Notes: generated by a model from the letters alone, not told the origin. DNA of 64,000 bases from Nitrospirales bacterium (GCA_965223295.1 CBDCWC010000002.1:1376001-1440000), one strand, 5' to 3'. Positions 11,885-30,034 are shown, counted from the first letter of the stretch. A program made the numbers and translations.

Positions 11885-12871
11885 TTACCTGGTCTCGTCG
11901 TTTTCATTCTTTCGAGAGATTTTTATCTCATTACTTGTGGATATCGACCCAATACCCTCCTTCATGTATAAAATTGCACCAGGTAAAACAGATAGAACCA
12001 CAAGCATTCTTACGAGTAATGCCATCACCAGAATCACAACAACATCTGCTTCAGTGAGCGAAAAGAAATAAACAAAGGCTCCTTCCTGAACCCCAAGCCC
12101 GGCGATCGAAATAGGAATCATACTGACTAATGAGATCACCGGAACAAAAAGAACGTAATAGGGTAAGTCCAAGCTAATGCCCACCCCCAATCCTACAAGC
12201 CATGTAAAGCAGATACGAACAATTTGCACCAGAAAGGAGAGCACCAGAGCAATGGCCAAACGAATTTTTATGTTCTGATAATACTGCAAAGAATCACGAA
12301 TTTCTTTCAATCTTAACGCAAGATTGCTCTCAGGATTTATCAACCGTTCGAACCATGGAAAGAAGAAATACCCGACTATGCCGCAACACACACCAATGAC
12401 AAATAGCCCCAAGAAAACCCTCTCAATAATGACCACAGGAATAACTTGCAATTGCTCATAAAAAACCACAAACCCTACGACACACGTCAAAACAAGAGCC
12501 AGCAGCCCTAGTAATCTTTCTACAAGAACAGAGGAAAATGACGTGGTCACATGAAATCCAGATCTCATAAGGCCAAACCCCTTGAGAAACTCTCCTCCCA
12601 CACTAGAGGGGGCTATCAGTCCCAAAAATGAACTCTTAAAATAAATACTTAAAACTTGAGTGAAGCTAATGTCAGAATTTCGATCGTCTATGAGAATATG
12701 CCATCTGCAGGCATTGAGCACACGATCAATCATAACCAAAGCTCCAGCAAGGAATAGATACCTGCCAATCAACTGATCCCAACGGCTGGACTCAAGGAAG
12801 TCATCCCAAGGAATTAATGTGCATACAATCGCCGACACAAGAACGCTCACCAAGAGCCTAAGATAGAACAT
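11885..12871 (-). CDS. Lysylphosphatidylglycerol-synthase TM domain (UPF0104) flippase-like membrane protein
   Basis: Polytopic; RWHILI, PSSVGGE, SSVLVERLLG and IPISIAGLGVQEG motifs. Confidence 0.8.
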   Translation of the reverse strand: MFYLRLLVSVLVSAIVCTLIPWDDFLESSRWDQLIGRYLFLAGALVMIDRVLNACRWHILIDDRNSDISFTQVLSIYFKSSFLGLIAPSSVGGEFLKGFGLMRSGFHVTTSFSSVLVERLLGLLALVLTCVVGFVVFYEQLQVIPVVIIERVFLGLFVIGVCCGIVGYFFFPWFERLINPESNLALRLKEIRDSLQYYQNIKIRLAIALVLSFLVQIVRICFTWLVGLGVGISLDLPYYVLFVPVISLVSMIPISIAGLGVQEGAFVYFFSLTEADVVVILVMALLVRMLVVLSVLPGAILYMKEGIGSISTSNEIKISRKNENDETR

Positions 12872-13079
12872 AAAACTTATTCCTGCATTGAATTTTCTGT
12901 CGCTTCAATCATGCGTGAAAAATCGCTTCTTTCTATTCCCTGCTCTCTATTCATTTGTTTTTCACAAACGATTCCCGACGCAAACAACCGAGCTAACCAA
13001 AGCGTTCCCTTTATACTCAGTCTCTTTCTGTTTCTCAATTACTTACTTTTGCTCAACGATCTCTAACGTGAGGAAAATT

Positions 13080-14222
13080 CTATTGTGGTGAGGCGAGTAA
13101 TTCTCGATAAATCTTGGCAAGACGTTTTACAGAGTATGAAATATCATAGCGTTGACAGACTTCCCAACCCTTTTCACCCATACGGTTAACTAACAATGGA
13201 TTCTGAAGTAAGAAAGAAACTTTCTCAACCAATGTAGCCACGTTCTTAGGAGGAACCACGAAACCTGTTTCTCCTTCAACTATAACTTCCGGCATCATCC
13301 CTGTAGGAGTTCCGATCACTGGCTTACGCATATTCATTGCTTCAAATAAAGTCAAAGGCCCCCCCTCACCATGGATCGATGGAAGCACAACAATATCAGA
13401 GAACGCCAGCAATACAGGCACGTCTTCAGAGAAACCAGTAAAAATAACACGGTCTCCAAGCTTTAACTTTTGCGCTTCAGTCTGTAGTTTAGAAGAGTCA
13501 GGCCCATCACCAACAATGAGAAAGCGTGCTAGAGGGTATTGCTTCACAAGTTCGGCTGCGGCCCGAAGAAAATAGATTTGTCCCTTCATCTCCGCAAGAC
13601 GACCAACAGTGGACACAATGGTTTCTTTGCTTGAAATATCTAGTTCCCTACGTTTAGCCACAACCAGCTTTTCATCAGGAGGAGCAAATTCTGAAAGAGG
13701 AAGGCCATAAAAGAATGTCTCCATTATTGCTGGATTGACTTTTCTACACCGGGACATGAAATCTTCCACCGGCTTCGATATTGCAATGGCTTTAGTAGCC
13801 AAAGGAGACAAAATGGTATCCGCTATAGTTTGGTAGAACGGTTGATTTATAAGAACCGCATGCTCATGTACAATATTGGGTATCCCAGTTATCAAACTTG
13901 CAATACGTCCAAAATTTGCGGCTCCATACCCATGAAGATGCAGGATTTGAGGTTTAACTTCCCGGATTACTCTCAAGAGATGAGGAAGAGTCATAGGAGA
14001 AAATTTCCCTTTGTCTAAGTACAACACAGAAATACCTTCTCTTTCCAAAAACTTCCCTCCAGCTTGACGAGATCGAAGGCTACACACCACAAAATCAAAC
14101 TCCGATTTGTCAAAACGTGGAATCCACCATTTCAGAGCTTGGGTGATTCCGTGTATACTTGCACCAGAAATATCCAACTTATCAATAAGGTGTAGAACAC
14201 GTATGGGGTTGGGACTATTCAT
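13080..14222 (-). CDS. Glycosyltransferase family 4
   Basis: VGRLAEMKG, FLIVGDGP, DIVVLPS.HGEGGPLTLFEAM. Confidence 0.9.
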   Translation of the reverse strand: MNSPNPIRVLHLIDKLDISGASIHGITQALKWWIPRFDKSEFDFVVCSLRSRQAGGKFLEREGISVLYLDKGKFSPMTLPHLLRVIREVKPQILHLHGYGAANFGRIASLITGIPNIVHEHAVLINQPFYQTIADTILSPLATKAIAISKPVEDFMSRCRKVNPAIMETFFYGLPLSEFAPPDEKLVVAKRRELDISSKETIVSTVGRLAEMKGQIYFLRAAAELVKQYPLARFLIVGDGPDSSKLQTEAQKLKLGDRVIFTGFSEDVPVLLAFSDIVVLPSIHGEGGPLTLFEAMNMRKPVIGTPTGMMPEVIVEGETGFVVPPKNVATLVEKVSFLLQNPLLVNRMGEKGWEVCQRYDISYSVKRLAKIYRELLASPQ

Positions 14223-14469
14223 GTATCAACTCCCTTATCGGGCATCAATTTTTATGGTAAGGACAGGATTTCCCAACGATACAATGACAACCAAAGTAGT
14301 TCGGGCTCGAAATTTTCAATTATTCCCAAACACATCTAGCTTGGCTGGCACAGTCAAAGTCCTTTGACAGAGATTAGAAATACTAATAGCTTACCTGATA
14401 AGACAATGAGAGCATTATTCCCTTCAACCCACTCCTGTACCACAAAGTAAAGAATCTATAAAAATTCTT

Positions 14470-15459
14470 CTATCGGAGGTGGCCATTTTCTTTGTACCAA
14501 ATTGCGGTGCGATGAATGCCTTCTTTTAGAGAAATTTTTGGCTGAAAGTTCAGTTCTCTCTTGGCCTTTGAAATATCGAACGCTCTATTCTTTTTGAAGA
14601 AATCTATGCGTCGCCGATACAACGGTGGCTCGATTCCAAACGGTTTACAGAGAGCTTCACAAGCAAAACCTGCTGCATACACAGGCCACATGGGAATCCG
14701 CCACCCTGGTCGGGGAACCCCTAATTCATCAGCAATCATGGTCACTAACTGATTGAGAGGCACATATTCTTCTCCAGCTAAAATATATGTTTGACCAATC
14801 GCTTGCTCTGACCTGCTGCTCAGAATGATTCCATTCACGAGATCATCGATATACGTAAAATGGTAGTTCACCGTACCTGGGCCGACCATAATAAATCGGC
14901 GTTTATGAATAGCTCGAAAAAGCTTCAAGAACCGCAGATCCCCAGGGCCATAAATTCCAGCTGGCCGAACAATCGTAACGGCTAGCTTTGCTTCATTCAT
15001 ATAACGCCGAGCAATTTCCTCTCCCTGCAACTTGGTCTCTTGGTAAATATCACCAGGACCAAACGGAGCTTCTTCATTGGCTGGTGACTTGGCAACATGC
15101 CCATGAACTCCTACTGTACTGCAGTGAACAAATCTGGAAACACCGCTTTCTATGGATGCCTTCAGCAAATGCTCAACGCACTCGGCATTCACCTTTCTAA
15201 AGACCTCTGGCCCAACGCCTTGCTGCCGAAATAACGCTGCAATATGAAAGACAACATCAACCTTGCCTACCGCTTCTTGAATACTGTGAGGATCACTGAG
15301 ATCACCCCAGACAAGGTCGACGTTGAGTCTCCTCAATTCTTCAACTTGACTCCCTTTTCGTACGAGAGTCCGAACATCATAACCCTGCTTGACGAGCTCC
15401 GCGCATAAATGACCGCCCGTAAAACCGGTTCCTCCGGTTACCAGAGCCTTCACTCGCAC
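14470..15459 (-). CDS. NAD-dependent epimerase/dehydratase (extended SDR)
   Basis: LVTGGTGFTG, HCSTVGVHG, YQETK (YxxxK). Confidence 0.85.
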   Translation of the reverse strand: MRVKALVTGGTGFTGGHLCAELVKQGYDVRTLVRKGSQVEELRRLNVDLVWGDLSDPHSIQEAVGKVDVVFHIAALFRQQGVGPEVFRKVNAECVEHLLKASIESGVSRFVHCSTVGVHGHVAKSPANEEAPFGPGDIYQETKLQGEEIARRYMNEAKLAVTIVRPAGIYGPGDLRFLKLFRAIHKRRFIMVGPGTVNYHFTYIDDLVNGIILSSRSEQAIGQTYILAGEEYVPLNQLVTMIADELGVPRPGWRIPMWPVYAAGFACEALCKPFGIEPPLYRRRIDFFKKNRAFDISKAKRELNFQPKISLKEGIHRTAIWYKENGHLR

Positions 15460-15496
15460 TTTACCTTCTGATACTTCAAATCAATGATATTCATCT

Positions 15497-16519
15497 TCAA
15501 GTCTGATTGGAGCCCTCAGGTAACTCCGCCCTCCAACTCTTTGGCATATTTTTCAGTATCTCAACTCCTTCAAAGGTCTTACCTCGCTTGGCCCCAACTT
15601 TTTTCGCCCATAAAGCCATTCGGCCAATACCGTCCTCTAAAGAAACGACAGGTGCACCGCCAAAAATATCGTGTAACTTCTTATGACTTGAAAAGGCATG
15701 CAAGACTTCGTTCCGTGCATCCAAGTAGGTGATCTCTTCCTTGCTACCCATAGCCTTAGCTACAATCGTTGCCAGTTCGTTGACGGTGTGGGGAGTTTCA
15801 GCTCCAATATTAAACACCGTATTCAGTGCACCCGAATTAAAAGGAGAGCTGGCAATAATCGGCGCAACATCCTGTATATACGAAAATGCACGACTTTGCT
15901 GCCCATCTCCAAATATGGTCATAGGTTGTCCTTGCATCAGTTGATTCATAAAAATTCCCACAACATTTCGGTACCGATCTCCGATATTTTGTCGTTCTCC
16001 ATAGACATTATGCGGGCGAAACACCACGTAATTGAGACCAAACATTTCATGACTGGCCCGCAAATCTTGCTCAACAGCTAACTTGGCAATGCCATAGGGA
16101 TCTTCAGGAACCGGGACCATCTCTTCAGTCATGGGCAATTGATTCTTTCCATACACCGCAATTGAGGAGGTAAAGACAAAACACTTCACTGAATGATTCA
16201 CAGATGCGTTAATCAGGTTGATACTTCCAATCACGTTATTCTCGTAATTGAATCTCTTAATGAAATGACTTAGACCCTCTGCTGCATAGGCAGCAAGATG
16301 ATACACATAGGAAAACTTATGTTCCGTGAAAAGCTTGTGTATGAGTTGAGTATCGACCACGCTCCCTTCAACGAACTCCGCTTTTTCAGGAACATTCTCG
16401 GGAAATCCTCCACTCAAATCGTCTAACACCACAACATCTAGCCCTCGAGCAATGACTTCATCAGCCACATGGGAGCCAATAAATCCTGCACCGCCAGTTA
16501 TGAGTACTTTCTCGTTCAT
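15497..16519 (-). CDS. NAD-dependent nucleotide-sugar epimerase/dehydratase
   Basis: LITGGAGFIGSH, FTSSIAVYG, PYGIAK, RPHNVYG. Confidence 0.88.
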   Translation of the reverse strand: MNEKVLITGGAGFIGSHVADEVIARGLDVVVLDDLSGGFPENVPEKAEFVEGSVVDTQLIHKLFTEHKFSYVYHLAAYAAEGLSHFIKRFNYENNVIGSINLINASVNHSVKCFVFTSSIAVYGKNQLPMTEEMVPVPEDPYGIAKLAVEQDLRASHEMFGLNYVVFRPHNVYGERQNIGDRYRNVVGIFMNQLMQGQPMTIFGDGQQSRAFSYIQDVAPIIASSPFNSGALNTVFNIGAETPHTVNELATIVAKAMGSKEEITYLDARNEVLHAFSSHKKLHDIFGGAPVVSLEDGIGRMALWAKKVGAKRGKTFEGVEILKNMPKSWRAELPEGSNQT

Positions 16520-16524
16520 CGTAG

Positions 16525-17727
16525 TTACCCTCCCTTGACAACCAAGTCCTGATCACCAACATACCGTTCATAGACCTCTTGCAACCGATGCCCTACCGCG
16601 TCCCATGAATACTCAGAAGACGCTTTCTGGTAACTATCCTCTCCAAGCTTCCGGGCACGCGCCGTATCGGTCAAGAGTTCTACAAGCCTCTGCGCAAAGG
16701 CATGTACCTCTCCATTCTCGGCATACACTCCCAAATCGCCTAATATCTCCCGATTCACCGAATTATCAAAGACAATGCTTGGAAGCCCCATGGCCATATA
16801 GGCAAACAACTTCAAATTTGCTTCCGAAGAAGAAGTCTTGGGCGATACCGCAACATCTCCCAAAGAAAGATATCGAGGCGCATCTGCGTAGGCAATTTTT
16901 CCCGTAAAAATCACGTGCTCTCCAAGTCCCATGGAAATAGCCTTTTCTCGATATGCCTGCTCAGGAAAACCAAGAATTAAAAATTTGGCCGTGTGGACTT
17001 TTTTTAAAACGATCGCCGCGGCCTCCAAGAGCAAATCAATCCCTTGATAGGATGCGAGTACGCCAATGAACACAGCGACTTTGTCTTTAACGCCGATGCC
17101 AAGCTCAGTTTTAAGCTCTAAGTCTTCCGACCGGCGGTAAAATACGTCCAGATCCACACCGTCACCAATGGTCGACACATCAGTCATTCCAAATTTTTCA
17201 GTGACCAGTTGTGTCAGACGTGAAGCACTTGTAATGAGATGACGCGGCATCTTGTTGACATTCTTTTCTATCCACTGAACAAGTCCAACAAGCCACGGCC
17301 AACGAGGAATAAACTCATGATCCAAAATTTCCTCTGTCAGACTTCCCTGCAAATCAGCCACCATTGGAATCCCGAACAACATGCTCGCAAGCTTCCCAAT
17401 GACAATCCCTTCGTGTAGATGAGCATGAATGATATGCGGGCGAAACGCCCCACAACTACGCAACACAATCCAGAGCAACAACACATCAATATAGAACTTG
17501 TGAATCGAAGGACCGGCAGACAACTTCTGATACCAAGGAATATTCATCGTTCGAACGGTATCGATCCCTTCGATGTCTCTTCCCAAATGATAAGTACAGA
17601 CTTGAACGGTCCATCCTTGGCTTTTCAAGGCCTTGATTTCACCAAGAATTCGAACATGGCATCCCCGATCTGCAAAAAATGGAGTCGGTGCGACTACAAG
17701 GATACGCTTGAGCGCTGGCTTGTGCAT
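16525..17727 (-). CDS. Glycosyltransferase family 4
   Basis: APTPFFADRGCHVRI, HIIHAH, YQGIDLLLEA, KLFAYMAMGLP; GT-B fold motifs. Confidence 0.85.
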   Translation of the reverse strand: MHKPALKRILVVAPTPFFADRGCHVRILGEIKALKSQGWTVQVCTYHLGRDIEGIDTVRTMNIPWYQKLSAGPSIHKFYIDVLLLWIVLRSCGAFRPHIIHAHLHEGIVIGKLASMLFGIPMVADLQGSLTEEILDHEFIPRWPWLVGLVQWIEKNVNKMPRHLITSASRLTQLVTEKFGMTDVSTIGDGVDLDVFYRRSEDLELKTELGIGVKDKVAVFIGVLASYQGIDLLLEAAAIVLKKVHTAKFLILGFPEQAYREKAISMGLGEHVIFTGKIAYADAPRYLSLGDVAVSPKTSSSEANLKLFAYMAMGLPSIVFDNSVNREILGDLGVYAENGEVHAFAQRLVELLTDTARARKLGEDSYQKASSEYSWDAVGHRLQEVYERYVGDQDLVVKGG

Positions 17728-19412
17728 TCACTCACTCCTTTGCGTCGGTACTCAGCATTCGTCTCATGCAGTTCATGTTGAATTCTCGCTTCATTCCAAT
17801 TCATTTCTCTAGCCATAAGCATGGCACACCTCCGTAGACATTCATCTCCGGGATGCCCCATGGCGCCAAGTTCCGTTCGCCGAAACACAATATCACTCAA
17901 AGTCTGAGCCATTTCTCTCCTTACACCATGAATAATTTCGGCTTTGGTCACGATCATATGGGGCTCAACCTGATCTCCTAGAGCAAGATCTTCTTCGCTA
18001 TATTGAAATATGTCACGAAAATTCGAACCGTAAGTATCCACAACATGTTGGACCACCTCTTGAGACATTCTCTTGGGCTTTTGGCTTATTGCGTCCCGTA
18101 AGAGTTCTTCGTGGGAAAGAAAGTTCCCTCCGTAAACCGGGACGGTCGCAGTTGTACATGGCACTGATTTTTTCCCAAGCTTGCGAAACACTAAATCAAT
18201 GGTCTTTTCCGCTACTCCTCGGGCAGTTGTAAACTTTACCCCGCTCACTGAAAGTATTCCTCGAACACCATCAATTTTTTCATGATCGTGAATCACGGGA
18301 TGCTTGGCCAATTGAACATCATTGTTCACCCCAGAAGTAACCGCTCGTGGAAGAAGACCCCAGTTGACTAAATGTACATCGTTTCGAGCAATCACAGCTT
18401 CGGGTAAACTAGCATTAATTTCTTTTAGCTGGGACTCAATTTCTTCTTCTGTCACACAAGCGTCATCCGGGCTTCCCTCATATCGTGTTTGAAAAGTTCC
18501 AACTAAACATCGATTTTTCCAGGGAGTCATGAAAAAATACCGGCATCCTTTATTCACAACAGCATCAACATCTACGTAGGTATATCGGCTAGGAACACCA
18601 AGAGCTATAGTATCCACAATGGGGTTTGTGACGAGGACGATAGCTTTGAGCAAGGGGAGTTGAGTTCGCGGGAAGCCCTGACGAGTCTTCATAGGCCACA
18701 TCTGATCAAGCCATGGCCCACTACAATTGACGACAAATTTTGCTCGAATTTCCAGTGAGTTATGGGCTAATACATCCTCAGCTTCCACTCCGACCGCCGA
18801 GCCATGGGTCACGAGAAGCGTAGACACCCTGACATAGTTCAGTACATCTGCGCCGTGATCGTGAGCAGACAGCAACATCGACAGTAAAAGACGTTCAGAG
18901 TTATGCACTTGGGCATCAAAATAATAGGCTCCACCGGTCAATTCATGTTGATTAATCATTCCACAATGCTCAAGGCATTTCTCATTCGATAGCACACGGC
19001 TTGCAGGAAACTGTAGCGATTCCGGCAAGTCGCGGTTCCGATCAAACGCAATGAAATCATTTGCCATCAGTGCAATGCGCAGCAAAGACTTCTTCGCCCC
19101 AATATTCTGGTAGGTTGGGATCAAAAACGGCATAGGCTTCACAAGGTGAGGAGCCATACGAACGAGTGCACGTCTCTCATAAATTGACTGCCTCATTCGA
19201 ATCAAATCGCCATGCTGTAAATACCGCAATCCTCCATGAATGATCTTATGGCTATTACCAGAAGTTGCATGTCCAAAATCACCTTTTTCCAAAAGAACAA
19301 CTTTCAATCCGCGTAAGGCCGCATCACGCGCAACACAGGCTCCATAAATCCCTCCTCCAATAACCAACACATCATACTCTTGCCTTGTGATGTCTTCGGG
19401 TACTCGATTCAT
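17694..19412 (-). CDS. FAD-dependent glycerol-3-phosphate dehydrogenase/oxidase-like protein (GlpD family)
   Basis: DVLVIGGGIYG, ATSGNSHKIIHGGLRYL, GVKFTTAR, EMAQTLSDIVFRRT. Confidence 0.8.
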   Translation of the reverse strand: MNRVPEDITRQEYDVLVIGGGIYGACVARDAALRGLKVVLLEKGDFGHATSGNSHKIIHGGLRYLQHGDLIRMRQSIYERRALVRMAPHLVKPMPFLIPTYQNIGAKKSLLRIALMANDFIAFDRNRDLPESLQFPASRVLSNEKCLEHCGMINQHELTGGAYYFDAQVHNSERLLLSMLLSAHDHGADVLNYVRVSTLLVTHGSAVGVEAEDVLAHNSLEIRAKFVVNCSGPWLDQMWPMKTRQGFPRTQLPLLKAIVLVTNPIVDTIALGVPSRYTYVDVDAVVNKGCRYFFMTPWKNRCLVGTFQTRYEGSPDDACVTEEEIESQLKEINASLPEAVIARNDVHLVNWGLLPRAVTSGVNNDVQLAKHPVIHDHEKIDGVRGILSVSGVKFTTARGVAEKTIDLVFRKLGKKSVPCTTATVPVYGGNFLSHEELLRDAISQKPKRMSQEVVQHVVDTYGSNFRDIFQYSEEDLALGDQVEPHMIVTKAEIIHGVRREMAQTLSDIVFRRTELGAMGHPGDECLRRCAMLMAREMNWNEARIQHELHETNAEYRRKGVSECTSQRSSVSL

Positions 19413-19532
19413 TTTTTGCTCAGCAAATCACTTGGCTCTGTAGCCACCTTTTTAGACATAGGCACCGAGCCCACTTGCAAACTTTAGAGCAAAACATCCC
19501 ACGCAGCCCCAGAGCTGCCATGAGGGAAGTAT

Positions 19533-20210
19533 TTAGGACGATGTGGCCTGTTGAACCACCATAGCCACGGCAATATTAGTCGTATGAGAGATACTTACTG
19601 CGAAAGGAATAGGGGTAGGAATGCCATCTTGATAATGCCGGAGGATCGGCGACGCCTCAGCCTTGGAAACTAACTCAATGTTTTTCATTTCTTCATGAAG
19701 ATAGGATGGCTGGCATTTCTTCAGAGCTTCTTTGGCACACCAGCGAGCAGCAAAATGCATGCGTGGATGGTCTTGGAGCAAGCAATAGGCAATCTCAACT
19801 GATGAAAATGAATTGGTATAAAAAGAATCTTTCCAATAGTCATCAACCTCAGGAAAGCCTTCAACCATCTCAACATCTATTCCGCAACTCATTCCGGTTC
19901 CCGCTCCCATGCCATTGAACATAACGGGAACAGCTGTTTCAGAGTTTGATTTTTGAGAGACAGCTGCAACGGACGCGCCTGACTCGTCGTGAGAAGCCAC
20001 TCCTAACACTGCCTTATGCAACTCCCCATATGTTTTGGCTGAATACACCCCACGGCATGTGACTCCAAGACGATGCCGAATTGCCGCATCAAGCTTGGCC
20101 CGAGCCAAAGACCCTTGCATACGCCTCGTTGACAAGAGAAAATCTTCGTGAACTTTGGTCACGTCGGCTTCAAACAGTTCAGCAACGATTTGCTTAAGCT
20201 TGGCTTCCAT
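19533..20210 (-). CDS. Fusion of an acyl-carrier-protein-like domain and an AcpS-type phosphopantetheinyl transferase
   Basis: N-terminal ~70 aa helical domain with QGSLARAKL (Ser at the DSL position); C-terminal CGIDVE, FSSVEIAYC, HFAARWCAKEALKK, VSISHT; probable ATG 20210 (ORF track 20225). Confidence 0.75.
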   Translation of the reverse strand: MEAKLKQIVAELFEADVTKVHEDFLLSTRRMQGSLARAKLDAAIRHRLGVTCRGVYSAKTYGELHKAVLGVASHDESGASVAAVSQKSNSETAVPVMFNGMGAGTGMSCGIDVEMVEGFPEVDDYWKDSFYTNSFSSVEIAYCLLQDHPRMHFAARWCAKEALKKCQPSYLHEEMKNIELVSKAEASPILRHYQDGIPTPIPFAVSISHTTNIAVAMVVQQATSS

Positions 20211-20218
20211 CTTTACGT

Positions 20219-21601
20219 CTACCACCCCCGCATGCAGACACTACATAGGTATCCGCGCTTTCCGTCTGGCTTCACCGTCTGCACCATAAAGTGATCCCAG
20301 TGCTCGAAGTGATCCCACTCCTGAATTTTTGAAAGCGGGGTCAGACAACGTGAACAACTAAGTTTGTCGACTTCTTCCACACCTTCATCCTTCTTTGGAC
20401 CATCAACAAGTGCGGCTTCATAAGCCTGCAGATGCTCACCTAATTCACCCAAAAACTTAGCAGCTTGACGTCCCTCTGAAACCTGATGATCAAACGCTAG
20501 AATCAGATTAAAGACCCCTTCACGGCTACCAGGCGGGAAAAATTCTCCGCCGACACCAAGAATCGCAGACTGCCCTTGATTGAGAAGCGGATGAAACGCA
20601 AAGACCCCCTCACCCGACAGATCAGTTACGGTACAGGTGCCGCCTTGGAGATCTTCACTGGAAAGGCCATTCCCCAGATATGACACCATTAGTTCCTGCA
20701 TTTCACGTGTGATCTGAGCAATGCTCTTGCTGTCAGCAGCATGGATCACCGGAACCTTCAGTCCAAAATCCCCATCAATGGCAAACCCGACATTGATTTC
20801 TTCATAGAAATTGACATGTTCATCTTGATAGAACGCATTGAACCATGGATAGTGTCGTAACAAACGAGCCATTTCAAAGATAATCACGGCAGTAGTCGTA
20901 GCTTCAACATTCATATTCTGATCAACCGCCGCACGGAGACCCTTCGTTGGGATGGCGACCGTAATCACGCTCGGCAAAGCATTCTGATATCCAGAAGATA
21001 GATATCCGATTTCCGTTCGTTTACTTTTTGGCAACTTTTCTGTTTGAAATGGAACCCCTGTCGCAGGAACCGGCGAAACGTTTGATTTCAACTGCTCTAC
21101 CTTGACAGGACGAGGAGAAGAAGGCTGTGCAGGACTCTTTTCACCTAATTCCACAAGAATATCTTCAGTTCTCACGAGACCTCGATCTGCGAATCGGTCT
21201 GGTGAAAGACCACGCTCCTCTAACAAGGCCTGAGCTTTCTTCGTAAAGTGTGACGAAGACTGTTCCCTGGGCTGAGAAACCCTGGGCTCTTGTCCATTTT
21301 TCATCGTATTCGACAAAGGAGTCTTTGCTAGTCCACCGTCATCTGGTAAAGCTGCAGAGTCGTCACTTCGGATGCTGCACAGCATTGCTCCGACATTAAT
21401 ATCAGTACCCGGCTCAATAGAATATTCCAAAACTCCTGTGGCCGGAGCCTCAATTTCCATGACGGCTTTACTCGTTTCAATCTCAGCAATCATCTGTCCT
21501 TGTATCACCTTCTCTCCAGTGGGAACAGACCAAGACAACACCGTCACGGACTCGTCGTTCACGTTATCTTGTGGAATGATGACAGGAATACTATTTTTCA
21601 T
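20219..21601 (-). CDS. Dihydrolipoamide acyltransferase (E2)-like protein with C-terminal CxxC..CxxC extension
   Basis: Lipoyl domain EIETSKAVMEI; catalytic domain GLKVPVI, LQGGTCTVTDL, AFDHQVSEG; tail CSRC...CSVC. Confidence 0.8.
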   Translation of the reverse strand: MKNSIPVIIPQDNVNDESVTVLSWSVPTGEKVIQGQMIAEIETSKAVMEIEAPATGVLEYSIEPGTDINVGAMLCSIRSDDSAALPDDGGLAKTPLSNTMKNGQEPRVSQPREQSSSHFTKKAQALLEERGLSPDRFADRGLVRTEDILVELGEKSPAQPSSPRPVKVEQLKSNVSPVPATGVPFQTEKLPKSKRTEIGYLSSGYQNALPSVITVAIPTKGLRAAVDQNMNVEATTTAVIIFEMARLLRHYPWFNAFYQDEHVNFYEEINVGFAIDGDFGLKVPVIHAADSKSIAQITREMQELMVSYLGNGLSSEDLQGGTCTVTDLSGEGVFAFHPLLNQGQSAILGVGGEFFPPGSREGVFNLILAFDHQVSEGRQAAKFLGELGEHLQAYEAALVDGPKKDEGVEEVDKLSCSRCLTPLSKIQEWDHFEHWDHFMVQTVKPDGKRGYLCSVCMRGW

Positions 21602-23559
21602 ACATCCATCATTTCTAAGGCCATTTTGACGACATGCTTTTCACCAGGCAGACATTGTTTTTCAAGCGGGCCACATGAGGGAATCGGATGGTTCGGGGAA
21701 GCGACTCGACGAACCTGCCGAAGCACGCCGGGCATCAGCTCTGAGATTTGCGCCAACACCTCAGAGCCAAGTGCTGCAAAATTTATCCCTTCCTCAACGA
21801 TCAAAAGCTTTTGAGTCTTTTGAAGCGATTCCAGTACAGCCCATGGATGAAAGGGATACACCTGAATGGGACAGATCACTTCGCAAAAAATTTCATACTC
21901 GTCACATAACTCTTGTACGGCACGTTCGACGTCCACCAGCATACCGCCATAACATAATATCGTGAGATCAGGATGACCTAATGGACGTATACGTGTTGCC
22001 GGGAATTGCTCGTTGGTATGCTCCAGCACAAATCCGTCAGGAACTTGATCAGACACACGAAGTCCATAGAGCAATTTATTTTCAATAAGGATCGTCGGAC
22101 GATCAATGGAAGAAAACACTTCATCATACACAAGCCCAGCATCACAGCGAGAATGGAGGGCCAACATAGTTGTACCTGGAAGGCCCATAAAATGCTTTTC
22201 AATACTTTGGCTGTGCGTCGGGCCATAACCACGCTTGCCTCCCATCGGCGTGCGCACCACCAACGGTACGCGGACTTGCTCGTTATACATGTAACGAAAC
22301 TTGGAGGCGTGATTGAGCAGTTGATCAAACGCAAGCCCCAAAAAATCACCAAACATTATTTCGCACACCGGCAACAAACCGTTCAGCGCCAGCCCATTGC
22401 CCAACCCAACCAGTGCCGATTCGCTAATAGGTGTATTCCGCACACGGCCTGGAAACTCTTGGCTCAAATTCTTGGTTACTTTAAAGGCACCACCATAGGG
22501 CCCCTCAATATCTTCTCCAATCAAGATGATTTTATCGTTCCGCTTCATGTTACGCTGAAACGAAAGATGAATCATATTCACCATTCGTTCGGATGACGAA
22601 ATCTTCGTGGTCATCCATTCCGTCGTGGTCGCCTCTCTTTTCTCCACCGCAACCACACTCATTTCAGAATAGGGAGCTTCATCTGAACGAGAGACCGCAG
22701 CATCAATGTTTGCTTGAATTTTCCGATCAATGGCCTCAACTTGCTGTCTATCAGCCTGTCTGCGAAAAATTTCAATCGGATCTTTGGCCCAGTACTCATT
22801 CACTTCTTCGGGGTCACGGTCATCGTCTCCCTTGGAATGTGCCATGAGCCGATATGTGTCAATTTGCAAGAACAAGGGGCGGCATTCGCTTCGTACATAC
22901 TCAATACAGTCTGCCGTCGTCACCAGGAGTTCTTCAGGTTCCCAAGTGTTTGAATGAGCAGTCTTTATGCCAAAAGCATCACCACGCGCCAGAATACTTC
23001 CAGCTAAAGTCTGTCTCTGTGAGGTACTCTGAGCATAGTAGTTGTTTTCAAGTACCACTAGTAAGGGCAATTCCCAACGTGAAACAAGATTGAGAGATTC
23101 GTAGAGTGCGCCTTCTCCCAATGTGCCATCGCCAATAAAGACCACCGCAATGAATCCCGTCTTTAAAACCTTTTGAGCCATCGCAAGACCTGCAGCAACT
23201 GGAACAATGCCGCCTTGAATTCCATTGCTATAAAACCCCTGAGAACAGATGTGCTGACTGCCTCCCCTTCCGCCGCACATGCCATTTTGCTTGCCCATAA
23301 TCTCTCCGATGAGACCTTCAACATCGCCTGTTTTCGCTAAATAATGCCCATGGCAGCGATGATTACTAAACACAAGATCACCATCTCTTAACGATTCGGC
23401 AACGGCCACCCCTGTCCATTCTTGCCCGATACAAGTATGAACAGTTCCAAACAACCGTCCTTCTTTAAACAATTCAAGGAGCCTCTGCTCAACACTTCGA
23501 ATCAGCATGGCCTTTGTATACAGCTGGATGTCTAATGTCGAGGATTTTTCTGTAATCAT
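21598..23559 (-). CDS. 2-oxoacid dehydrogenase E1 alpha+beta fusion (TPP-dependent)
   Basis: GTVHTCIGQE, SNHRCHGH, TPP motif GDGTLGEG..ENN, YRLMAHS; beta half IGEDI, NTPISE, YGPTHSQS. Confidence 0.9.
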   Translation of the reverse strand: MITEKSSTLDIQLYTKAMLIRSVEQRLLELFKEGRLFGTVHTCIGQEWTGVAVAESLRDGDLVFSNHRCHGHYLAKTGDVEGLIGEIMGKQNGMCGGRGGSQHICSQGFYSNGIQGGIVPVAAGLAMAQKVLKTGFIAVVFIGDGTLGEGALYESLNLVSRWELPLLVVLENNYYAQSTSQRQTLAGSILARGDAFGIKTAHSNTWEPEELLVTTADCIEYVRSECRPLFLQIDTYRLMAHSKGDDDRDPEEVNEYWAKDPIEIFRRQADRQQVEAIDRKIQANIDAAVSRSDEAPYSEMSVVAVEKREATTTEWMTTKISSSERMVNMIHLSFQRNMKRNDKIILIGEDIEGPYGGAFKVTKNLSQEFPGRVRNTPISESALVGLGNGLALNGLLPVCEIMFGDFLGLAFDQLLNHASKFRYMYNEQVRVPLVVRTPMGGKRGYGPTHSQSIEKHFMGLPGTTMLALHSRCDAGLVYDEVFSSIDRPTILIENKLLYGLRVSDQVPDGFVLEHTNEQFPATRIRPLGHPDLTILCYGGMLVDVERAVQELCDEYEIFCEVICPIQVYPFHPWAVLESLQKTQKLLIVEEGINFAALGSEVLAQISELMPGVLRQVRRVASPNHPIPSCGPLEKQCLPGEKHVVKMALEMMDV

Positions 23560-23603
23560 AATGTATCGACTCTGTTGAACGAGACAGATGCTGTTGACAC
23601 CAT

Positions 23604-24374
23604 CTACAGTAATGACTCGCCGCGCGGCAGAAGGAGAAGTTTCCGATTAGGAATGGCAATCGCAAAATCAGGAATGTCCTCAGTCACCACTGTTCCTGAA
23701 CCAATCACACAACCATTTCCAATGTTCACACCATCTTGCACAATCACTCCCGAACCGATCCACACATCATTTCCAATAACCACAGGGCCATTAGAATACA
23801 ACCCTTGCTCCATCATCGGAATCTCTCTATCAGCCGTATGATATCGTCCGCCACCAATATAACATTGACCTGCCATCATCACTGATTTCCCCAATGAAAT
23901 GCCCCCAACCGAACTCAACTGGCATTGGCTGCCAATTGAACAATAATCTCCGATAGAGATGGGACCAGCTTTAGCCTGTATGATTGTACTGCGAGCAATC
24001 AACACATCATTGCCGATTGTTATGCCTTGGGATTCGGCGCCCTTTGCATCGACTAAACAATGATCATCAATCGCCACACGATCCCCAAGCTGGATTTTTC
24101 CGGGATGACGAAGGGAAATATTTTTTCCCCATACCACTCCAGATCCAACTTTTTTGCACAGCAAAGGAAAGAATTGTTTTCGCAGGAGTAGTCCCAGGGC
24201 TCCTGGGAAAGAGCCAAGACACATCGTCAAGAATTCAAACTTAGCCAACGCTCCAACACTCGAAGAACCCACAAAAAAATTCTGATATTTTTTCAATGCG
24301 GACGTATCAGTTTCGGCCAAACTTTTCGCAAAGGGCTGCTTCGAGATTGTCTGTCCAGACTTGGTCGAAATCAC
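23604..24374 (-). CDS. Hexapeptide-repeat (left-handed beta-helix) acyltransferase
   Basis: Repeated hexapeptides (IQLGDRVAI, ITIGNDVLI, VVIGNDVWIG, IGNGCVIG). Confidence 0.88.
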   Translation of the reverse strand: MISTKSGQTISKQPFAKSLAETDTSALKKYQNFFVGSSSVGALAKFEFLTMCLGSFPGALGLLLRKQFFPLLCKKVGSGVVWGKNISLRHPGKIQLGDRVAIDDHCLVDAKGAESQGITIGNDVLIARSTIIQAKAGPISIGDYCSIGSQCQLSSVGGISLGKSVMMAGQCYIGGGRYHTADREIPMMEQGLYSNGPVVIGNDVWIGSGVIVQDGVNIGNGCVIGSGTVVTEDIPDFAIAIPNRKLLLLPRGESLL

Positions 24375-24483
24375 GCTCGCTCTTTCTCCTAGTATCTCCA
24401 GATTTTTAAAATTTCTTCATGAACTAGTTGTTGGCCTTTTCAATCTGCCAATCACCCTGTATGAAAGATACATCCCCATAATA

Positions 24484-24510
24484 GTATCGGCCCTGACTCT
24501 GGACTGATTA
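24484..24510 (-). promoter_or_regulatory. Putative sigma-28 (FliA) promoter
   Basis: Minus strand reads TAAT-N15-GCCGATAC, about 110 bp upstream of the acyltransferase start at 24374. Confidence 0.45.
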
Positions 24511-24965: not shown

Positions 24966-25029
24966 TTTCAGAAAAAATGAGAACCCCTTCATAGCAAAAG
25001 GCAACTCCTTCTGAACACTATACGGAGGG

Positions 25030-25854
25030 TCATTCCGGAAGCAAGGAATGGATAGGCCCGAAGGAAAAATCTTGGAGGAGTCGAGTCAGACGGCCCCGCA
25101 CTTTGTCTAAGTTGAGGTAGTGCCGAAACTGAGAAAGAAAAGACCCACGCATACGTGGTTGTCCAGGGTCCAGCTCCCAGGGATGCAAATACATGATAAG
25201 GGGTTGGCCTTGCTGTTCAACTCGACGCAACAGTTTCTTGAGAAGAGGATAAGGAAATAATCGAAAATACCCGCCGCCCGCAATGGGCAAAGTGAATCCA
25301 GCCACATGACATGTTGATGGCGGAACTTCCACCAAAGGGCCGGAATCTGTTTTCAACGTATGAATAGCGGGGTTCGCTCCGGGGATACCATAGTAATCAT
25401 GCACAATGGGGACAATACTTGAGTCATACCGATAACCTTCTTCAACTAAAATAGGCAAAGCCCATTCGGTTTCCTTGGTCACAGAAAATGTCGGCGCGCG
25501 ATACCCCAGAACTGGTGTTCCGCCAATGTCTTCTAAAAGTTTTTTGGCGCGCTTCACATCCTCTCGAAAAGCTTGTGGACTTTGTCCCGTGATTAATTCA
25601 TGGCCATAACCGTGAGAGGCGAGTTCATGGCCCGCTTCCACGATACGTTTCACCAACGCTTTGTTGCGTTCCGCCACCCAGCCAAGCACAAACATAGTGG
25701 CCTTGATTCCTCGTTGGTCCAATACTTCGAGAATCACTTCAGTGTTTTGTACAACTCGGCTATCTTGGCTTTCCCAATTGCGGCGACGTGCTGCGCTGTC
25801 AAACGCCGCCACTTGGAAATGCTCTTCAATGTCAAAACTTATCCCATGCAACAT
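25030..25854 (-). CDS. Polysaccharide deacetylase, XrtA/PEP-CTERM-locus subfamily
   Basis: SFDIEEHFQV, ATMFVLGWVAE, HELASHGYGH, GYRAPTFS, AGGGYFRL, YLHPWELDP. Confidence 0.9.
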   Translation of the reverse strand: MLHGISFDIEEHFQVAAFDSAARRRNWESQDSRVVQNTEVILEVLDQRGIKATMFVLGWVAERNKALVKRIVEAGHELASHGYGHELITGQSPQAFREDVKRAKKLLEDIGGTPVLGYRAPTFSVTKETEWALPILVEEGYRYDSSIVPIVHDYYGIPGANPAIHTLKTDSGPLVEVPPSTCHVAGFTLPIAGGGYFRLFPYPLLKKLLRRVEQQGQPLIMYLHPWELDPGQPRMRGSFLSQFRHYLNLDKVRGRLTRLLQDFSFGPIHSLLPE

Positions 25855-25888
25855 ACGCTCATTTGATCCTTTTTCCCTGCTGTCATGA

Positions 25889-26947
25889 CTATCTTGCTCC
25901 GCTACCTTGCAAGACGACTCGAATGGTGCGAAATAAGATTTTGAGATCTAACCATAAGGACAAATTTTTCACATAATAGAGGTCATACTGAAGTTTGACA
26001 TGTGAGTCTTCTAATGACGAGGCATATTGAAAACATGTTTGCGCCCATCCTGTAATCCCTGGACGGACAGTATGACGTAAATCATAATAGGGAATCTGCG
26101 TTCGAAGATCTTGCACAAAATGAGGACGCTCAGGCCTGGGACCCACGAGACTCATTTCACCCTTGACCACATTAATGAATTGTGGCAGTTCATCTAACCG
26201 AAGTTTGCGTAACCAAAATCCTACCCTCGTGACTCGTGGGTCACCTAGCGCAGCCCATTTAACCCCATCAGCTTCAGCATCATGCCGCATGGACCGAAAT
26301 TTCAGAAGAACATAAGGGTACCCATGAAGACCCACCCGTGTTTGACGATACAGAATAGGGCCAGGGGAATCCAATTTTATACAAAGGGCAATTACGCTCA
26401 TCAACGGCCCTAAAAAAGCCAAACCACAACAAGCCCCAATCATATCTCCAGTCCTTTTTAAGGCCATCACAACTGGTTTTCGCTTGAAGCCCGAGGAGAA
26501 GATTAAAAAACTGGGTTTTAGCTCATCAATAGATAAACGACCACATTCCTCTTCATACATTCGATGCCCATCTAAGACATCGATGCCCATAGATTTACTA
26601 TCCAACAACGCATCCAGAGGCAGCCCCCCACGCCGATCCTCTACGCAAACTGCAATGGTCTGAACTTGATGAAATTCAGAAAGTTCAAAGAGCTGATCAA
26701 CTGTGCCTAATACCTTGGGATTGACGATACTGGTACCGATTCGAGATTGATCGCTGGACAGAAAACCAACCACTTCGTAACGATGAGAGCGGTCATAGAC
26801 CAGTACTCTGGCTAAATCATGAGCCAAATTACCATCACCCAAGATTAAGACGCGTTTTTTCAGCCCGAACCATTTGTAGGGTGAATATAAGAGAAGGTCT
26901 GATTTCGGCATGACCGTGGCCGAAGAATCGAGGTAGGTCTCGTTCAT
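25889..26947 (-). CDS. Priming (undecaprenyl-phosphate) sugar transferase, XrtA/PEP-CTERM-system type
   Basis: CoA-binding-like N-domain; KFRSM, DPRVTRVG, RLDELPQ, MSLVGPRPERP, RPGITGWAQ, DLYYVKN; ATG 26947 overlaps the wzc stop (ATGA). Confidence 0.9.
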   Translation of the reverse strand: MNETYLDSSATVMPKSDLLLYSPYKWFGLKKRVLILGDGNLAHDLARVLVYDRSHRYEVVGFLSSDQSRIGTSIVNPKVLGTVDQLFELSEFHQVQTIAVCVEDRRGGLPLDALLDSKSMGIDVLDGHRMYEEECGRLSIDELKPSFLIFSSGFKRKPVVMALKRTGDMIGACCGLAFLGPLMSVIALCIKLDSPGPILYRQTRVGLHGYPYVLLKFRSMRHDAEADGVKWAALGDPRVTRVGFWLRKLRLDELPQFINVVKGEMSLVGPRPERPHFVQDLRTQIPYYDLRHTVRPGITGWAQTCFQYASSLEDSHVKLQYDLYYVKNLSLWLDLKILFRTIRVVLQGSGAR

Positions 26948-29337
26948 TCTGAATGTGTAAGAGCGTACGGCACAGAATACCCATGGCGGACATAATAGGG
27001 TACGCCCTCGGACCAAGCATCAGTAAGAATCAGCCTGATCGGGCTCGAGCCATGTATCATTTCTGTAGCCTTTTGTACAACATCTTTGGGAGTAATGCCA
27101 GACCGGACAATCATTAACACAATGTCTGCCAGACCACTTAACACATTAATATCCGCAAGGGGGAGAATAGGCGGACCATCTAAGATAATAAAACGATAGC
27201 GAGACCGGACCGCTTCAATGAGAGAGGAGAGGTGCTGTAACTTTGACAATGAAACGGGATAGGCATCCATATCTCCTACGGACATACACCATAGTGGCAA
27301 ATCCTCAATCTTTTGAAAACAGGATTCTAAGGGAGCCTGTCCAGCAAGGTAATCTGCGACCCCTGGGTAATGACGTAGCACAAACACATTATGCAAATTA
27401 GGGCGCTTGTAATCACAATCAATCACAAGAGTTGGCTCATCAAGGTCACGAGCGAGCGTATAGGCCAAATTTGATGCCGTCGAGGTCTTGCCTTCTCCCT
27501 TCAACGCACTGGACAAAAGCACAACATTCCCCGTGGGCCGATCCCCCAACAAATCCAACCGCGTGGCCGCAACACGAAATTGCTCTGCAACGACAGACTG
27601 AGGTCGCCACTTTGAGACCAAATTCAGTTGCGTGGGAAAGGCTTGAGGCTTGGAAGCTCCACTGTAGAACAGAGACTTACTTTTCGTTAATCCTTCATCA
27701 TCAAAATAATGATTCGATCCATTCCCATTTTGCTTCAATGTATCCGCCACTGGAAAATCTGAGGTTCCTGGCAACATTTGCATCGTCTTGCCATACGCCA
27801 TTTGAAAACTAGGAATTGTGGCGAGCATCGGCAACCCAAGAGACACTTCAACATCTTCCGAGCGCCGAAATGTTGGCGATAACAGCTCCAGGAGAAACGC
27901 TAAACCAAACCCTAAACCTGCACCGCCCGCCAATCCTCCTAACAGGATTAATTTTCGACCCAATCCCTCCGGTTTTCTTGGCAAATTCGCTGGATCCAAA
28001 ATACGGAACCTCTCGCCCTTTTGGCGGTTATCCAAGTTTTCTGACATCCTGGCATTAATCCGCTTTTTATGAAGAAGTTGGTAATTTCCCTGCATGTTTC
28101 CATAATCACGCTCTAGAACAAGAAGTTCTTGTTCACGTGTCGGTGTACGTTCGATGCGTTGTGATAAATTTTGCATCTCTTGAGTAATTCTTTTTGATTG
28201 CGACCGGAGCTTAATGACTTGAGCCTTTAATTCATTTTTTGAATTTTTTAGATCAGATAAATATGGATCAAAAACAGGGCCCTCTGAAGCTTCAAGACCA
28301 GATGGGATATCTATGTCAATAACCTCCTCGTCATCCCCAACAGCCTCAGAACGTTGGGCAAGTTCGGCTTCTAGATTTTTAATTTGCGTTTTTAGTGAAA
28401 CAACGTCAGGATAGGCATCTGTGTATTCACCAGACATTTTCGTGAGTTCCCGCTTCAGCTCTTCAATCCGCAAACTCACGGGATCAGATGCCACACTAGA
28501 GACAGGACTGGGGAACGATTCATCACCAAACTCTCTAAGCGTTCCCGCAATGGACTCATAGTCATGAATAGATTTCTGAAGAAGCTCCATTCGCACATTC
28601 AATCCATTAATCGACTCTTGTATCTGGATTTTTTCTTCCTGCAATCGGTCTAGAGTCCGAAGATTGGTTTCTAATTGCCCAGGCAACTCACCGGCATACT
28701 TCAACTTATATTCACTCAACAATTTTTCTTTTTCATCCAATGCCTCTTTGGCTGCCGCTAATTCTTGTTCTAAAAAATTAGTCGCCCCTTCAATAAATTG
28801 TTCACGTATTTTGATATTACCTTCAATATATTGAGAGGCTAATTTTGACGTGACTTTCATCGCCAACATGGGATCTTCATGACTAAAGGAAATTGTAAAG
28901 GCCTCAAGTTGCCGCGCACCTTTTGTCGTGATCTTCACATTTTTCCGCAACCCTTCAATAACGGATTCATACCCTTGAGTCTTAATCGTTTCTGGAAACA
29001 ACTGAAATTCATCAATGACTTTTTGGAGATTGGTCCGGCTTAACACTTGTTGCGTAATTGTCGATACCCGTTCTGCAGCACTCCCTTTAATCACAGACGG
29101 AACGTAATTTTCATGAATTTTTTGTTGTTCAACTAAAATGACGGTACTTGACCGGTACACATCCTTTTTCATCCAAGCCAGAACGCCGCCAACAGCAATG
29201 CCAAGAATGGTGAGAATGATAATCAGCCATTTTCGGCGAATAATGAGGTCGAGAAAATCTTTAATATATCGTTGGATCAGAACTGACTGATCCTGTTCCG
29301 CTTGTCCGCCATTTGAGAGAAAAGTTGATTCCGCCAT
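26944..29337 (-). CDS. wzc: Polysaccharide co-polymerase / tyrosine autokinase (Wzc-like)
   Basis: Two TMs flanking coiled coils; EQFR, Walker A SSALKGEGKT, VIDCD, ILDGPP; Tyr-rich C-terminus (PYYVRHGYSVPY). Confidence 0.88.
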   Translation of the reverse strand: MAESTFLSNGGQAEQDQSVLIQRYIKDFLDLIIRRKWLIIILTILGIAVGGVLAWMKKDVYRSSTVILVEQQKIHENYVPSVIKGSAAERVSTITQQVLSRTNLQKVIDEFQLFPETIKTQGYESVIEGLRKNVKITTKGARQLEAFTISFSHEDPMLAMKVTSKLASQYIEGNIKIREQFIEGATNFLEQELAAAKEALDEKEKLLSEYKLKYAGELPGQLETNLRTLDRLQEEKIQIQESINGLNVRMELLQKSIHDYESIAGTLREFGDESFPSPVSSVASDPVSLRIEELKRELTKMSGEYTDAYPDVVSLKTQIKNLEAELAQRSEAVGDDEEVIDIDIPSGLEASEGPVFDPYLSDLKNSKNELKAQVIKLRSQSKRITQEMQNLSQRIERTPTREQELLVLERDYGNMQGNYQLLHKKRINARMSENLDNRQKGERFRILDPANLPRKPEGLGRKLILLGGLAGGAGLGFGLAFLLELLSPTFRRSEDVEVSLGLPMLATIPSFQMAYGKTMQMLPGTSDFPVADTLKQNGNGSNHYFDDEGLTKSKSLFYSGASKPQAFPTQLNLVSKWRPQSVVAEQFRVAATRLDLLGDRPTGNVVLLSSALKGEGKTSTASNLAYTLARDLDEPTLVIDCDYKRPNLHNVFVLRHYPGVADYLAGQAPLESCFQKIEDLPLWCMSVGDMDAYPVSLSKLQHLSSLIEAVRSRYRFIILDGPPILPLADINVLSGLADIVLMIVRSGITPKDVVQKATEMIHGSSPIRLILTDAWSEGVPYYVRHGYSVPYALTHSE

Positions 29338-29386
29338 TTTTTTGCGACTTAATCTTTAATTCGAAAAATTTTGAATATAGCCAACG

Positions 29387-29998: not shown

Positions 29999-30034
29999 TC
30001 AACATCTCCCTTTGATAAATTCTACCCCAAATAT

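Follow-up and report, generated by a model that had tools for sequence, protein, structure and literature searches.

Within a 64-kb stretch of DNA of a Nitrospirales bacterium (G000:C2:1376001-1440000, referred to as a whole as the window), which comes from a 3.78-Mb genome with a completeness score of 100% and whose proteins have their closest named relatives in Nitrospirales, lies a row of five genes encoding a hexapeptide-repeat acyltransferase, E1 and E2 components resembling those of 2-oxoacid dehydrogenases, a predicted carrier domain fused to an AcpS-type 4'-phosphopantetheinyl transferase (PPTase), and a flavoprotein. The row sits in an exopolysaccharide locus of the XrtA/PEP-CTERM type. 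An initial annotation, made from the DNA alone, had proposed that five same-strand genes at 17694-24374 form a dedicated module that supplies an acyl group, bound to an acyl carrier protein (ACP), for glycan decoration. The gene row itself was recovered as described: all five open reading frames (ORFs) are on the minus strand, with domains confirmed by Pfam, the thiamine diphosphate (ThDP) motif of E1 is intact and the E1 and E2 genes overlap by 4 bp (21598-21601) on direct reading, and Pfam and NCBIfam place the row between polysaccharide export/priming genes and glycosyltransferase family 4 (GT4) genes. Its features, from upstream to downstream, are:

23604..24374, minus strand: left-handed beta-helix (LbH, hexapeptide-repeat) acyltransferase, WcaF/WbbJ-like, 256 aa, GTG start (Pfam Hexapep, 46.3 bits)
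21598..23559, minus strand: fused E1 alpha/beta, ThDP-dependent, 653 aa (Pfam E1_dh, Transket_pyr and Transketolase_C in one frame)
20219..21601, minus strand: lipoyl-E2 acyltransferase, 460 aa (Pfam Biotin_lipoyl and 2-oxoacid_dh)
19533..20225, minus strand: carrier domain fused to an AcpS-type PPTase, 230 aa counted from a GTG (Pfam ACPS and structural model)
19992..20210, minus strand: within the preceding gene, predicted ACP-like four-helix carrier domain (AlphaFold2 model and structure searches)
19548..19892, minus strand: within the same gene, AcpS-type transferase domain (invariant columns in a 21-row alignment, and fold match)
17694..19412, minus strand: GlpD-like FAD flavoprotein, 572 aa (Pfam DAO, 154.7 bits, and DAO_C, 89.1 bits)

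The LbH gene ends 44 nt before the downstream E1 gene, and an ATG of the carrier gene, at 20210, sits 8 nt past the E2 stop codon. Promoter and terminator scans of 16000-26000 gave counts not above those of shuffled sequence (13 vs 12.9 and 12 vs 8.4, respectively). No gene for E3, the lipoamide dehydrogenase, occurs among the ORFs of the 64-kb window, as had been noted; the only match to this enzyme above cut-off in the genome lies about 860 kb off (G000:C2:513685), and LipA is also encoded in G000.

A predicted carrier domain fused to an AcpS-type transferase

The protein encoded after E2 probably starts at the ATG at 20210, which gives the 225-aa database form, and not at the GTG of the 230-aa ORF. 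Its C-terminal half carries an ACPS domain (PF01648, residues 113-216, 40.6 bits vs a cut-off of 25; TIGR00556 reached 39.7 bits, under its cut-off of 45.35) and matches AcpS structures and the PPT domain of fungal fatty acid synthase (FAS) in Foldseek (E 1.5e-7 to 1e-4). The motifs GxDxxE, WCAKEA..K and SxSHT, which we take to be those of AcpS catalysis, are invariant there in an alignment of 21 homologues.

The N-terminal half had been called an ACP-like domain, an assignment that its predicted fold upholds, though Pfam missed it in the window copy. AlphaFold2 models of the full protein (mean pLDDT 84.3) and of the carrier domain alone (pLDDT 84.9) show a bundle of helices of the carrier type, in which Ser39 stands at the N-terminal end of helix 2. 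This serine (motif QGSLAR, codon at 20109-20111 of the window) is the candidate phosphopantetheine-attachment residue; in the 21-homologue alignment it is invariant within a G/S/N/T-S-L/I/M/V motif, in the roughly 75 residues conserved at the N-terminus, and it is kept in 31 of 31 hits at the loci described below. When the carrier model was compared with 48,161 chains using VIA-align, each of the top 50 was an acyl or peptidyl carrier protein or domain, aligned over 63-72 of 73 residues with Z 7.5-10.0 and a root-mean-square deviation of about 2 A, and the Foldseek top 50 were ACP chains or ACP-containing complexes (TM 0.58-0.80, E 2e-3 to 3.5e-2). PF00550, moreover, matches six of the 21 related carrier domains, with a best E of 8.5e-5. 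With four predicted helices and a conserved serine at the N-terminus of the second, the domain has the fold expected of a carrier in these models, from which we accept the third core protein as a putative private carrier domain fused to its own AcpS-type transferase (hereafter carrier/PPTase). At E <= 1e-30, 277 clusters out of 1.84 billion representatives belong to the family, and most of its members bear a C-terminal hydrophobic membrane tail (12 of the 21 alignment rows), which the Nitrospirales form does not have.

E1 and E2 components distinct from housekeeping dehydrogenases

E1 combines in one polypeptide the three domains of the heterotetramer-type alpha/beta 2-oxoacid dehydrogenases (E1_dh 173.8, Transket_pyr 93.1 and Transketolase_C 59 bits) and their ThDP motif, GDG-x25-ENN (residues 143-173, window 23041-23133), and scores under the cut-offs of both pyruvate dehydrogenase (PDH) E1 equivalogs (TIGR03182, 223.3 vs 393.85 bits; PRK09212, 174.9 vs 321 bits). 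E2 has the lipoyl lysine and the DH..G catalytic histidine of dihydrolipoamide acyltransferases. Its lipoyl domain (Biotin_lipoyl, 45.3 bits) contains Lys45 in the motif ETSK (window 21467-21469), nearly invariant among 23 aligned sequences, while its acyltransferase domain (2-oxoacid_dh, 124.4 bits, profile positions 49-231 only) has His372 in FDHQ (window 20486-20488), and F370, D371, H372 and G377 are invariant. Every E2 equivalog cut-off of NCBIfam was missed, the best score being 134 bits vs a cut-off of 722. The Pfam E3_binding domain gave no match in the window's E2 at E 1e-3; residues 118-153, which are partly conserved, resemble by eye what we take to be such a domain. E2 ends in a zinc-ribbon-like CxxC-x33-CxxC tail (window 20234-20356, minus strand), which recurs in 26 of 33 related E2s and is missing from those of the Elusimicrobiota loci and of L017, L021 and L022 (L denoting loci).

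A tree check set beforehand dealt with the relation of these E2s, from loci with adjacent E1, E2 and carrier/PPTase genes (the triad, see below), to housekeeping ones. In a maximum-likelihood tree of 34 triad E2s and 14 other E2s from the host genomes (L058 was omitted as a duplicate of the L008 triad E2), the triad E2s did not group with housekeeping E2s and formed a single group (100/100 support; stem length 2.41 changes per column) that was recovered in 100% of 200 bootstrap trees. Five other host genomes hold two to five further E2 matches each; in these, triad E2s score 117-132 bits vs 250-290 bits for the canonical proteins, and triad E1s 150-165 vs 240-294 bits, the triad copies being the lowest save for one other match in each list (E2, 124.7 bits; E1, 125.5 bits). 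In G000, the window's E2 is the sole PF00198 match and its E1 the sole full E1 match. The separate E2 clade, the low scores on housekeeping models and the patchy distribution described below set these enzymes apart from housekeeping PDH, grouping with which would have counted against the initial annotation.

An E1-E2 fusion in genome G002 (L059/L060), considered as a stand-in for QncL of the quinocarcin (Qnc) pathway and labelled QncL-like in the E2 trees, is not a Qnc reference and was rejected; it is set among leucine-catabolism genes and is therefore read as a fused branched-chain dehydrogenase. At L060:8091-11313 (minus strand, G002:C8), two overlapping ORFs share between them the E1 alpha, E1 beta, lipoyl and E2 catalytic domains; they probably represent a complete branched-chain dehydrogenase fusion that is interrupted by a frameshift or an error of assembly.

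A conserved core of three genes

When one genome per species was scanned for this pattern, the E1 alpha/beta, E2 and carrier/PPTase genes appeared in fixed order, co-oriented and tightly spaced, at 35 loci from Nitrospirales, Planctomycetota, Verrucomicrobiota and Elusimicrobiota, together with one Acidimicrobiia bin and one Victivallales bin. Three of the 35 lie on short or cut contigs where the set is only partly visible, and nine additional loci matched the transferase half only. Tallies of gene context given here use our own ORF calls and 6-kb flanks, and many of the loci come from metagenome bins. The single five-gene module originally envisaged thus contracts to a core of three genes with a varying acyltransferase partner. 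The GlpD-like gene, too, had been counted as a member and is linked to the core at Nitrospirales loci only, being found, besides the window, in just L001, L003 and L005 among the 35. Its product scores 250 bits against PRK12266 (cut-off 360) and has both DAO and DAO_C domains; no other DAO_C match occurs in G000, and this one may be just the ordinary GlpD of the cell. A role for it as a substitute for E3 was considered and dropped, as the DAO fold is not that of the disulfide reductases and a lipoamide dehydrogenase above cut-off is encoded elsewhere in the genome.

The distribution of the core is patchy. Among 121 genomes sampled across the order, the carrier/PPTase was found in five, counting G000, and it was found in one of the seven other scored genomes of the genus; with the module in so few genomes of the order, and with the window's E2 the only one in a complete genome, the module is therefore regarded as accessory. 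L002 and L006, two contigs of one metagenome bin, each have a carrier/PPTase gene, and this organism may carry two copies of the module.

Acyltransferase partners and glycan genes

The LbH protein of the window scores best in NCBIfam against the WcaF family (72 bits, under the cut-off of 192), so that only the general Hexapep repeat assigns it, and orthologues with 81-84% identity occupy the same position in L001, L003, L004 and L005. Across the whole set, 18 of the 35 loci have an LbH gene in the flanks examined; at ten of them, in three phyla, the gene directly adjoins or overlaps the triad (L001, L003, L004, L005, L009, L013, L015, L017, L018 and L020). These adjacent enzymes span at least three subfamilies, and the link is therefore to a function and not to one orthologue. 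Natural fusions extend the association. In L029, one open frame of 475 aa (8138-9565, plus strand) joins carrier, ACPS, PglD_N and Hexapep domains, and further ACPS-LbH fusions were found in the database (P0268, P0319 and P0339), all of which retain Ser39; P0319 has 35% identity over 96% of the query. Their LbH parts are of three kinds, a PglD type, a type like that of L015, and a third resembling serine acetyltransferases by eye. These fusions are, at the level of sequence, the strongest evidence for what appears to be a link with acyltransferases. The co-occurrence with LbH enzymes foreseen in the initial annotation accordingly stands in part, with an LbH gene near about half of the loci and three kinds of fusion, and falls short in that it is not constant, some loci having a membrane-bound O-acyltransferase (MBOAT) instead. 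The gene following the L029 fusion (9438-13886) encodes 1482 aa with FAD/NAD-binding, AMP-binding, PP-binding, PglD_N and Hexapep domains, a second carrier-linked LbH at that locus.

In Opitutaceae, the triad of L016 (5134-11929, from a cultured Horticoccus strain), L021 and L022 is preceded by an MBOAT with FIYFQF at its very C-terminus and followed by a weakly SGNH-like protein of about 350 aa that has weak GDSL and DUF1574 hits. FXYXXF is the acyl-shuttle motif described for PatA (PMC12148441). The layout of these loci resembles Dlt or PatAB with a dehydrogenase as the loader. In L009, a fusion of a GT2 glycosyltransferase with an exosortase comes immediately after the triad. Overall, 17 of the 35 loci, as well as the window, have a glycosyltransferase, sugar-nucleotide enzyme, flippase or exosortase gene within about 6 kb; the expected association with glycan genes is thus seen in several phyla and is incomplete, about a third of the loci having no glycan gene in their flanks.

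The surrounding exopolysaccharide locus

The remainder of the window locus upstream of the five genes (25030..30799, minus strand) and immediately downstream of them was assigned with Pfam and NCBIfam:

29387-29998 and 30035-30799, minus strand: two tandem Poly_export/SLBB genes, 203 and 254 aa (Poly_export domains)
26944-29337, minus strand: chain-length determinant/tyrosine kinase (TIGR03007, 289.2 bits vs a cut-off of 279)
25889-27016, minus strand: priming transferase (TIGR03013, 419.5 bits vs 393)
25030-25854, minus strand: XrtA-system deacetylase (TIGR03006, 368 bits vs 276)
16525-17727, minus strand: GT4
15497-16519, minus strand: short-chain dehydrogenase/reductase (SDR) of the epimerase/dehydratase kind
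14470-15459, minus strand: HpnA-like SDR
13080-14222, minus strand: GT4
11885-12871, minus strand: flippase-like LPG_synthase_TM protein

Against TIGR03027, the tandem Poly_export genes reach 143 and 123 bits, under the cut-off of 180. The downstream genes (11885..17727, minus strand) also come after the module in L001. An exosortase (Exosortase_EpsH, 255.7 bits) is encoded at G000:C2:1310995, about 65 kb from the window, and between this gene and the module locus, about 30 kb before the window, there is a small PP-binding match (G000:C2:1346330-1346497).

Proposed mechanism and alternative explanations

The observations that any explanation has to accommodate are the gene content and its motifs, the carrier fold with its serine, the E2 clade, the patchy distribution, and the acyltransferases adjacent to the triad or fused to its carrier. 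We favour, with moderate confidence, a pathway in which E1 and E2 load a short acyl group onto the private carrier and a neighbouring acyltransferase uses it to decorate a glycan. The E1 alpha/beta fusion would act on a short 2-oxo acid or other keto donor and place the acyl group on the lipoyl arm of E2, which would pass it to the phosphopantetheine arm of the carrier domain instead of to CoA; the fused AcpS-type transferase would convert that domain to its holo form, and the distant lipoamide dehydrogenase of the genome would re-oxidise the dihydrolipoyl arm. At the Nitrospirales locus, the LbH enzyme would then transfer the acyl group from the carrier to a sugar nucleotide or a lipid-linked repeat unit of the XrtA-type exopolysaccharide, and the neighbouring deacetylase may first remove an N-acetyl group, freeing an amine for re-acylation. 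This deacetylate-then-reacylate logic is that of NodB/NodA and LpxC/LpxD. We infer each of these transfers, as well as the acceptor and the acyl group, which may be acetyl, glycolyl or another.

Several findings weigh against this pathway. For the carrier domain, PF00550 finds no match in the window copy, Foldseek E values for the model are never <=1e-3, and a profile of the domain searched against PDB sequences returned no ACP, its best matches being designed repeat proteins (E 0.006). LbH genes are common in glycan loci anyway, and adjacency alone is therefore weak evidence; no glycan gene, moreover, lies in the flanks of L010, L011, L019, L027, L028, L031, L033, L034 and L035. No public RNA run is listed as containing the window stretch. 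There being no second E2 in the genome, a metabolic role is possible for the module in this organism, and the triad is followed by an E3 gene, in the manner of ordinary dehydrogenase complexes, in L014, L030, L034 and L035.

These last two points are also what would be expected if the triad were an ordinary, divergent 2-oxoacid or acetoin dehydrogenase making acyl-CoA, for example acetyl-CoA, for a polysaccharide acetyltransferase or for central metabolism, with the carrier/PPTase separate or structural. E1 and E2 do retain all catalytic motifs of CoA-forming complexes, and NCBIfam names WcaF-like LbH enzymes as acetyl-CoA users. We nonetheless regard this explanation as unlikely, given that a carrier/PPTase gene is present at every triad locus, that the E2 clade stands on a long separate stem, that other host genomes retain two to five additional E2 matches, that the module was not found in 116 of the 121 searched genomes of the order, including six of the seven others of the genus, and that carrier-LbH acyltransferase fusions exist. 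A special case of carrier loading, put forward in the initial annotation and not exclusive of the pathway that we favour, is Qnc-type chemistry, whereby a transketolase-like E1 acting on a ketose phosphate or hydroxypyruvate would deliver a C2 glycolyl unit to the carrier and so give a glycolylated polymer. It would suit the GlpD-like flavoprotein, a possible maker of the keto substrate, in the window, L001, L003 and L005, and a matching set of functions is listed for the glycolic unit of scleric acid and for QncN/L/M (PMC6335953). That likeness to QncN/L is by description of functions and not by sequence, however; the GlpD-like gene is not beside the triad outside Nitrospirales, and E1 best matches PDH E1 alpha/beta models (223 and 175 bits) vs 56 bits for transketolase, all of which makes this version improbable in our view, even if PDH-type best family matches, as sequence comparisons, do not settle the substrate of E1.

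Alternatively, the loaded carrier might feed a membrane lipid or glycolipid, or prime fatty-acid synthesis with an unusual starter. The flippase-like LPG_synthase_TM gene and the HpnA/OleD-like SDR in the gene row of the window, the LPG_synthase_TM gene directly after the carrier gene in L001 and L002, the membrane tail on many carrier/PPTase homologues (12 of 21 rows) and the loci without glycan genes would all fit such a role. No ketosynthase or other fatty-acid synthase gene was found in any scanned flank, however, and the recurring partners are sugar-type LbH enzymes (PglD-like or WcaF-like) and MBOATs, and we therefore give a lipid or fatty-acid product little credence.

Comparison with known systems

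By analogy, we read the module as a variant of the acyl-ACP loading logic of the QncN/L/M type. Homologues of QncN, QncL and QncM, along with a PPTase, are credited with producing a glycolic acid unit bound to an ACP; the scl cluster for scleric acid (SclQ1-4 and SclP) is homologous to QncN/L/M and encodes its own PPTase; and the functions listed are a ThDP part, a pyrimidine-binding part, a lipoyl/acyltransferase part, an ACP and a PPTase (PMC6335953). As far as that account goes, both kinds of system would use ThDP-dependent E1-like and lipoyl E2-like parts to bring a short acyl group to a dedicated ACP and not to CoA, a likeness drawn from function and domain layout and not from sequence. 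The fusions differ, E1 alpha and beta being joined in the triad, with a separate E2 and an ACP-PPTase, whereas Qnc joins its beta part to the lipoyl/E2 part and has a free ACP. Their settings differ as well: Qnc and Scl feed nonribosomal peptide synthetase (NRPS) lines in Streptomyces, whereas the window's module is in a polysaccharide locus, with no NRPS domain among the 23 window ORFs scanned with Pfam, and triad hosts are Nitrospirales, bacteria of the PVC (Planctomycetes-Verrucomicrobia-Chlamydiae) group, Elusimicrobiota and others. With the housekeeping pyruvate, 2-oxoglutarate and branched-chain complexes, the triad has in common the E1 domains, ThDP motif, lipoyl lysine and E2 histidine; unlike them, it has E2s in a clade of their own, scores below cut-off, no Pfam E3_binding hit in the E2 of the window, CxxC..CxxC tails in most cases and a carrier/PPTase gene that always follows, and it is patchy and accessory.

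For envelope polymers, the nearest parallel is Dlt D-alanylation, which comprises the loader DltA, the carrier DltC, the MBOAT DltB and the SGNH protein DltD (PMC12148441). A loaded carrier would in both cases serve as acyl donor for acylation of an envelope polymer, and L016, L021 and L022 of Opitutaceae have an MBOAT, the triad and an SGNH-like protein. The Dlt loader, however, is an adenylating enzyme, whereas that of the triad would be a lipoyl-dependent E1/E2 pair; the FXYXXF motif is on the C-terminus of the Opitutaceae MBOAT itself, as in PatA, and in Dlt on a DltX-like microprotein; and the window has an LbH enzyme and not an MBOAT. The fungal type I FAS alpha chain also has a carrier and an AcpS-type PPT in cis, and the C-terminal half of the carrier/PPTase is structurally closest to this fungal PPT, but the triad protein has no synthase, is small (225-280 aa) and often bears a membrane tail. 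LpxA and LpxD are LbH acyltransferases that draw acyl groups from ACP, and NodB, NodF and NodA deacetylate and then re-acylate. The window is reminiscent of these in having an LbH enzyme beside a carbohydrate esterase family 4 (CE4) deacetylase that could free an amine for re-acylation; its LbH protein is WcaF/WbbJ-like (72 bits) and not LpxA/D-like (35 bits), and there is no long-chain acyl machinery.

Possible significance

Acyl groups on bacterial surface polymers alter how these are charged, hydrated and recognised, and the donors for such acylation are usually taken to be acyl-CoA. No description of a module of this kind in a polysaccharide locus was found in the open-access papers and bioRxiv preprints searched. 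We tentatively raise the possibility, to which we give somewhat less than an even chance, that the triad is a widespread, unrecognised route to carrier-bound acyl donors for envelope glycans, with a lipoyl-dependent dehydrogenase in place of the adenylating loader, serving cytoplasmic LbH enzymes as in the window and MBOAT/SGNH pairs as in Opitutaceae. If so, transfer from dehydrogenase to carrier would be a third way of activating acyl groups for glycans, would explain an orphan carrier/PPTase family of 277 clusters, and would add beside Dlt a second carrier-protein-dependent MBOAT/SGNH pathway, non-Dlt pathways of this type being said to have no carrier protein on the ground that acyl-CoA is what they use (PMC12148441). 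It could also point to unusual matrix substituents in nitrite oxidisers and PVC bacteria.

Flanking genes and locus edge

A tRNA gene (window 31407-31480, minus strand) borders the polysaccharide locus, just outside its first Poly_export gene, and a search of the window with Rfam gave nothing besides this one tRNA. In L005, integrase/transposase genes (rve, DDE_3) flank the module; together with the tRNA edge, they would fit a mobile or variable locus. At the other end, the gene row goes on over 528-9191 (minus strand) with a DUF5060/apiosidase-like hydrolase and two proteins of 404 and 459 aa without an assigned family. Next are a sulfatase-like protein and one of 824 aa, part of which is spermine-synthase-like. 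The protein of 404 aa is also encoded near the module in L005 and L006.

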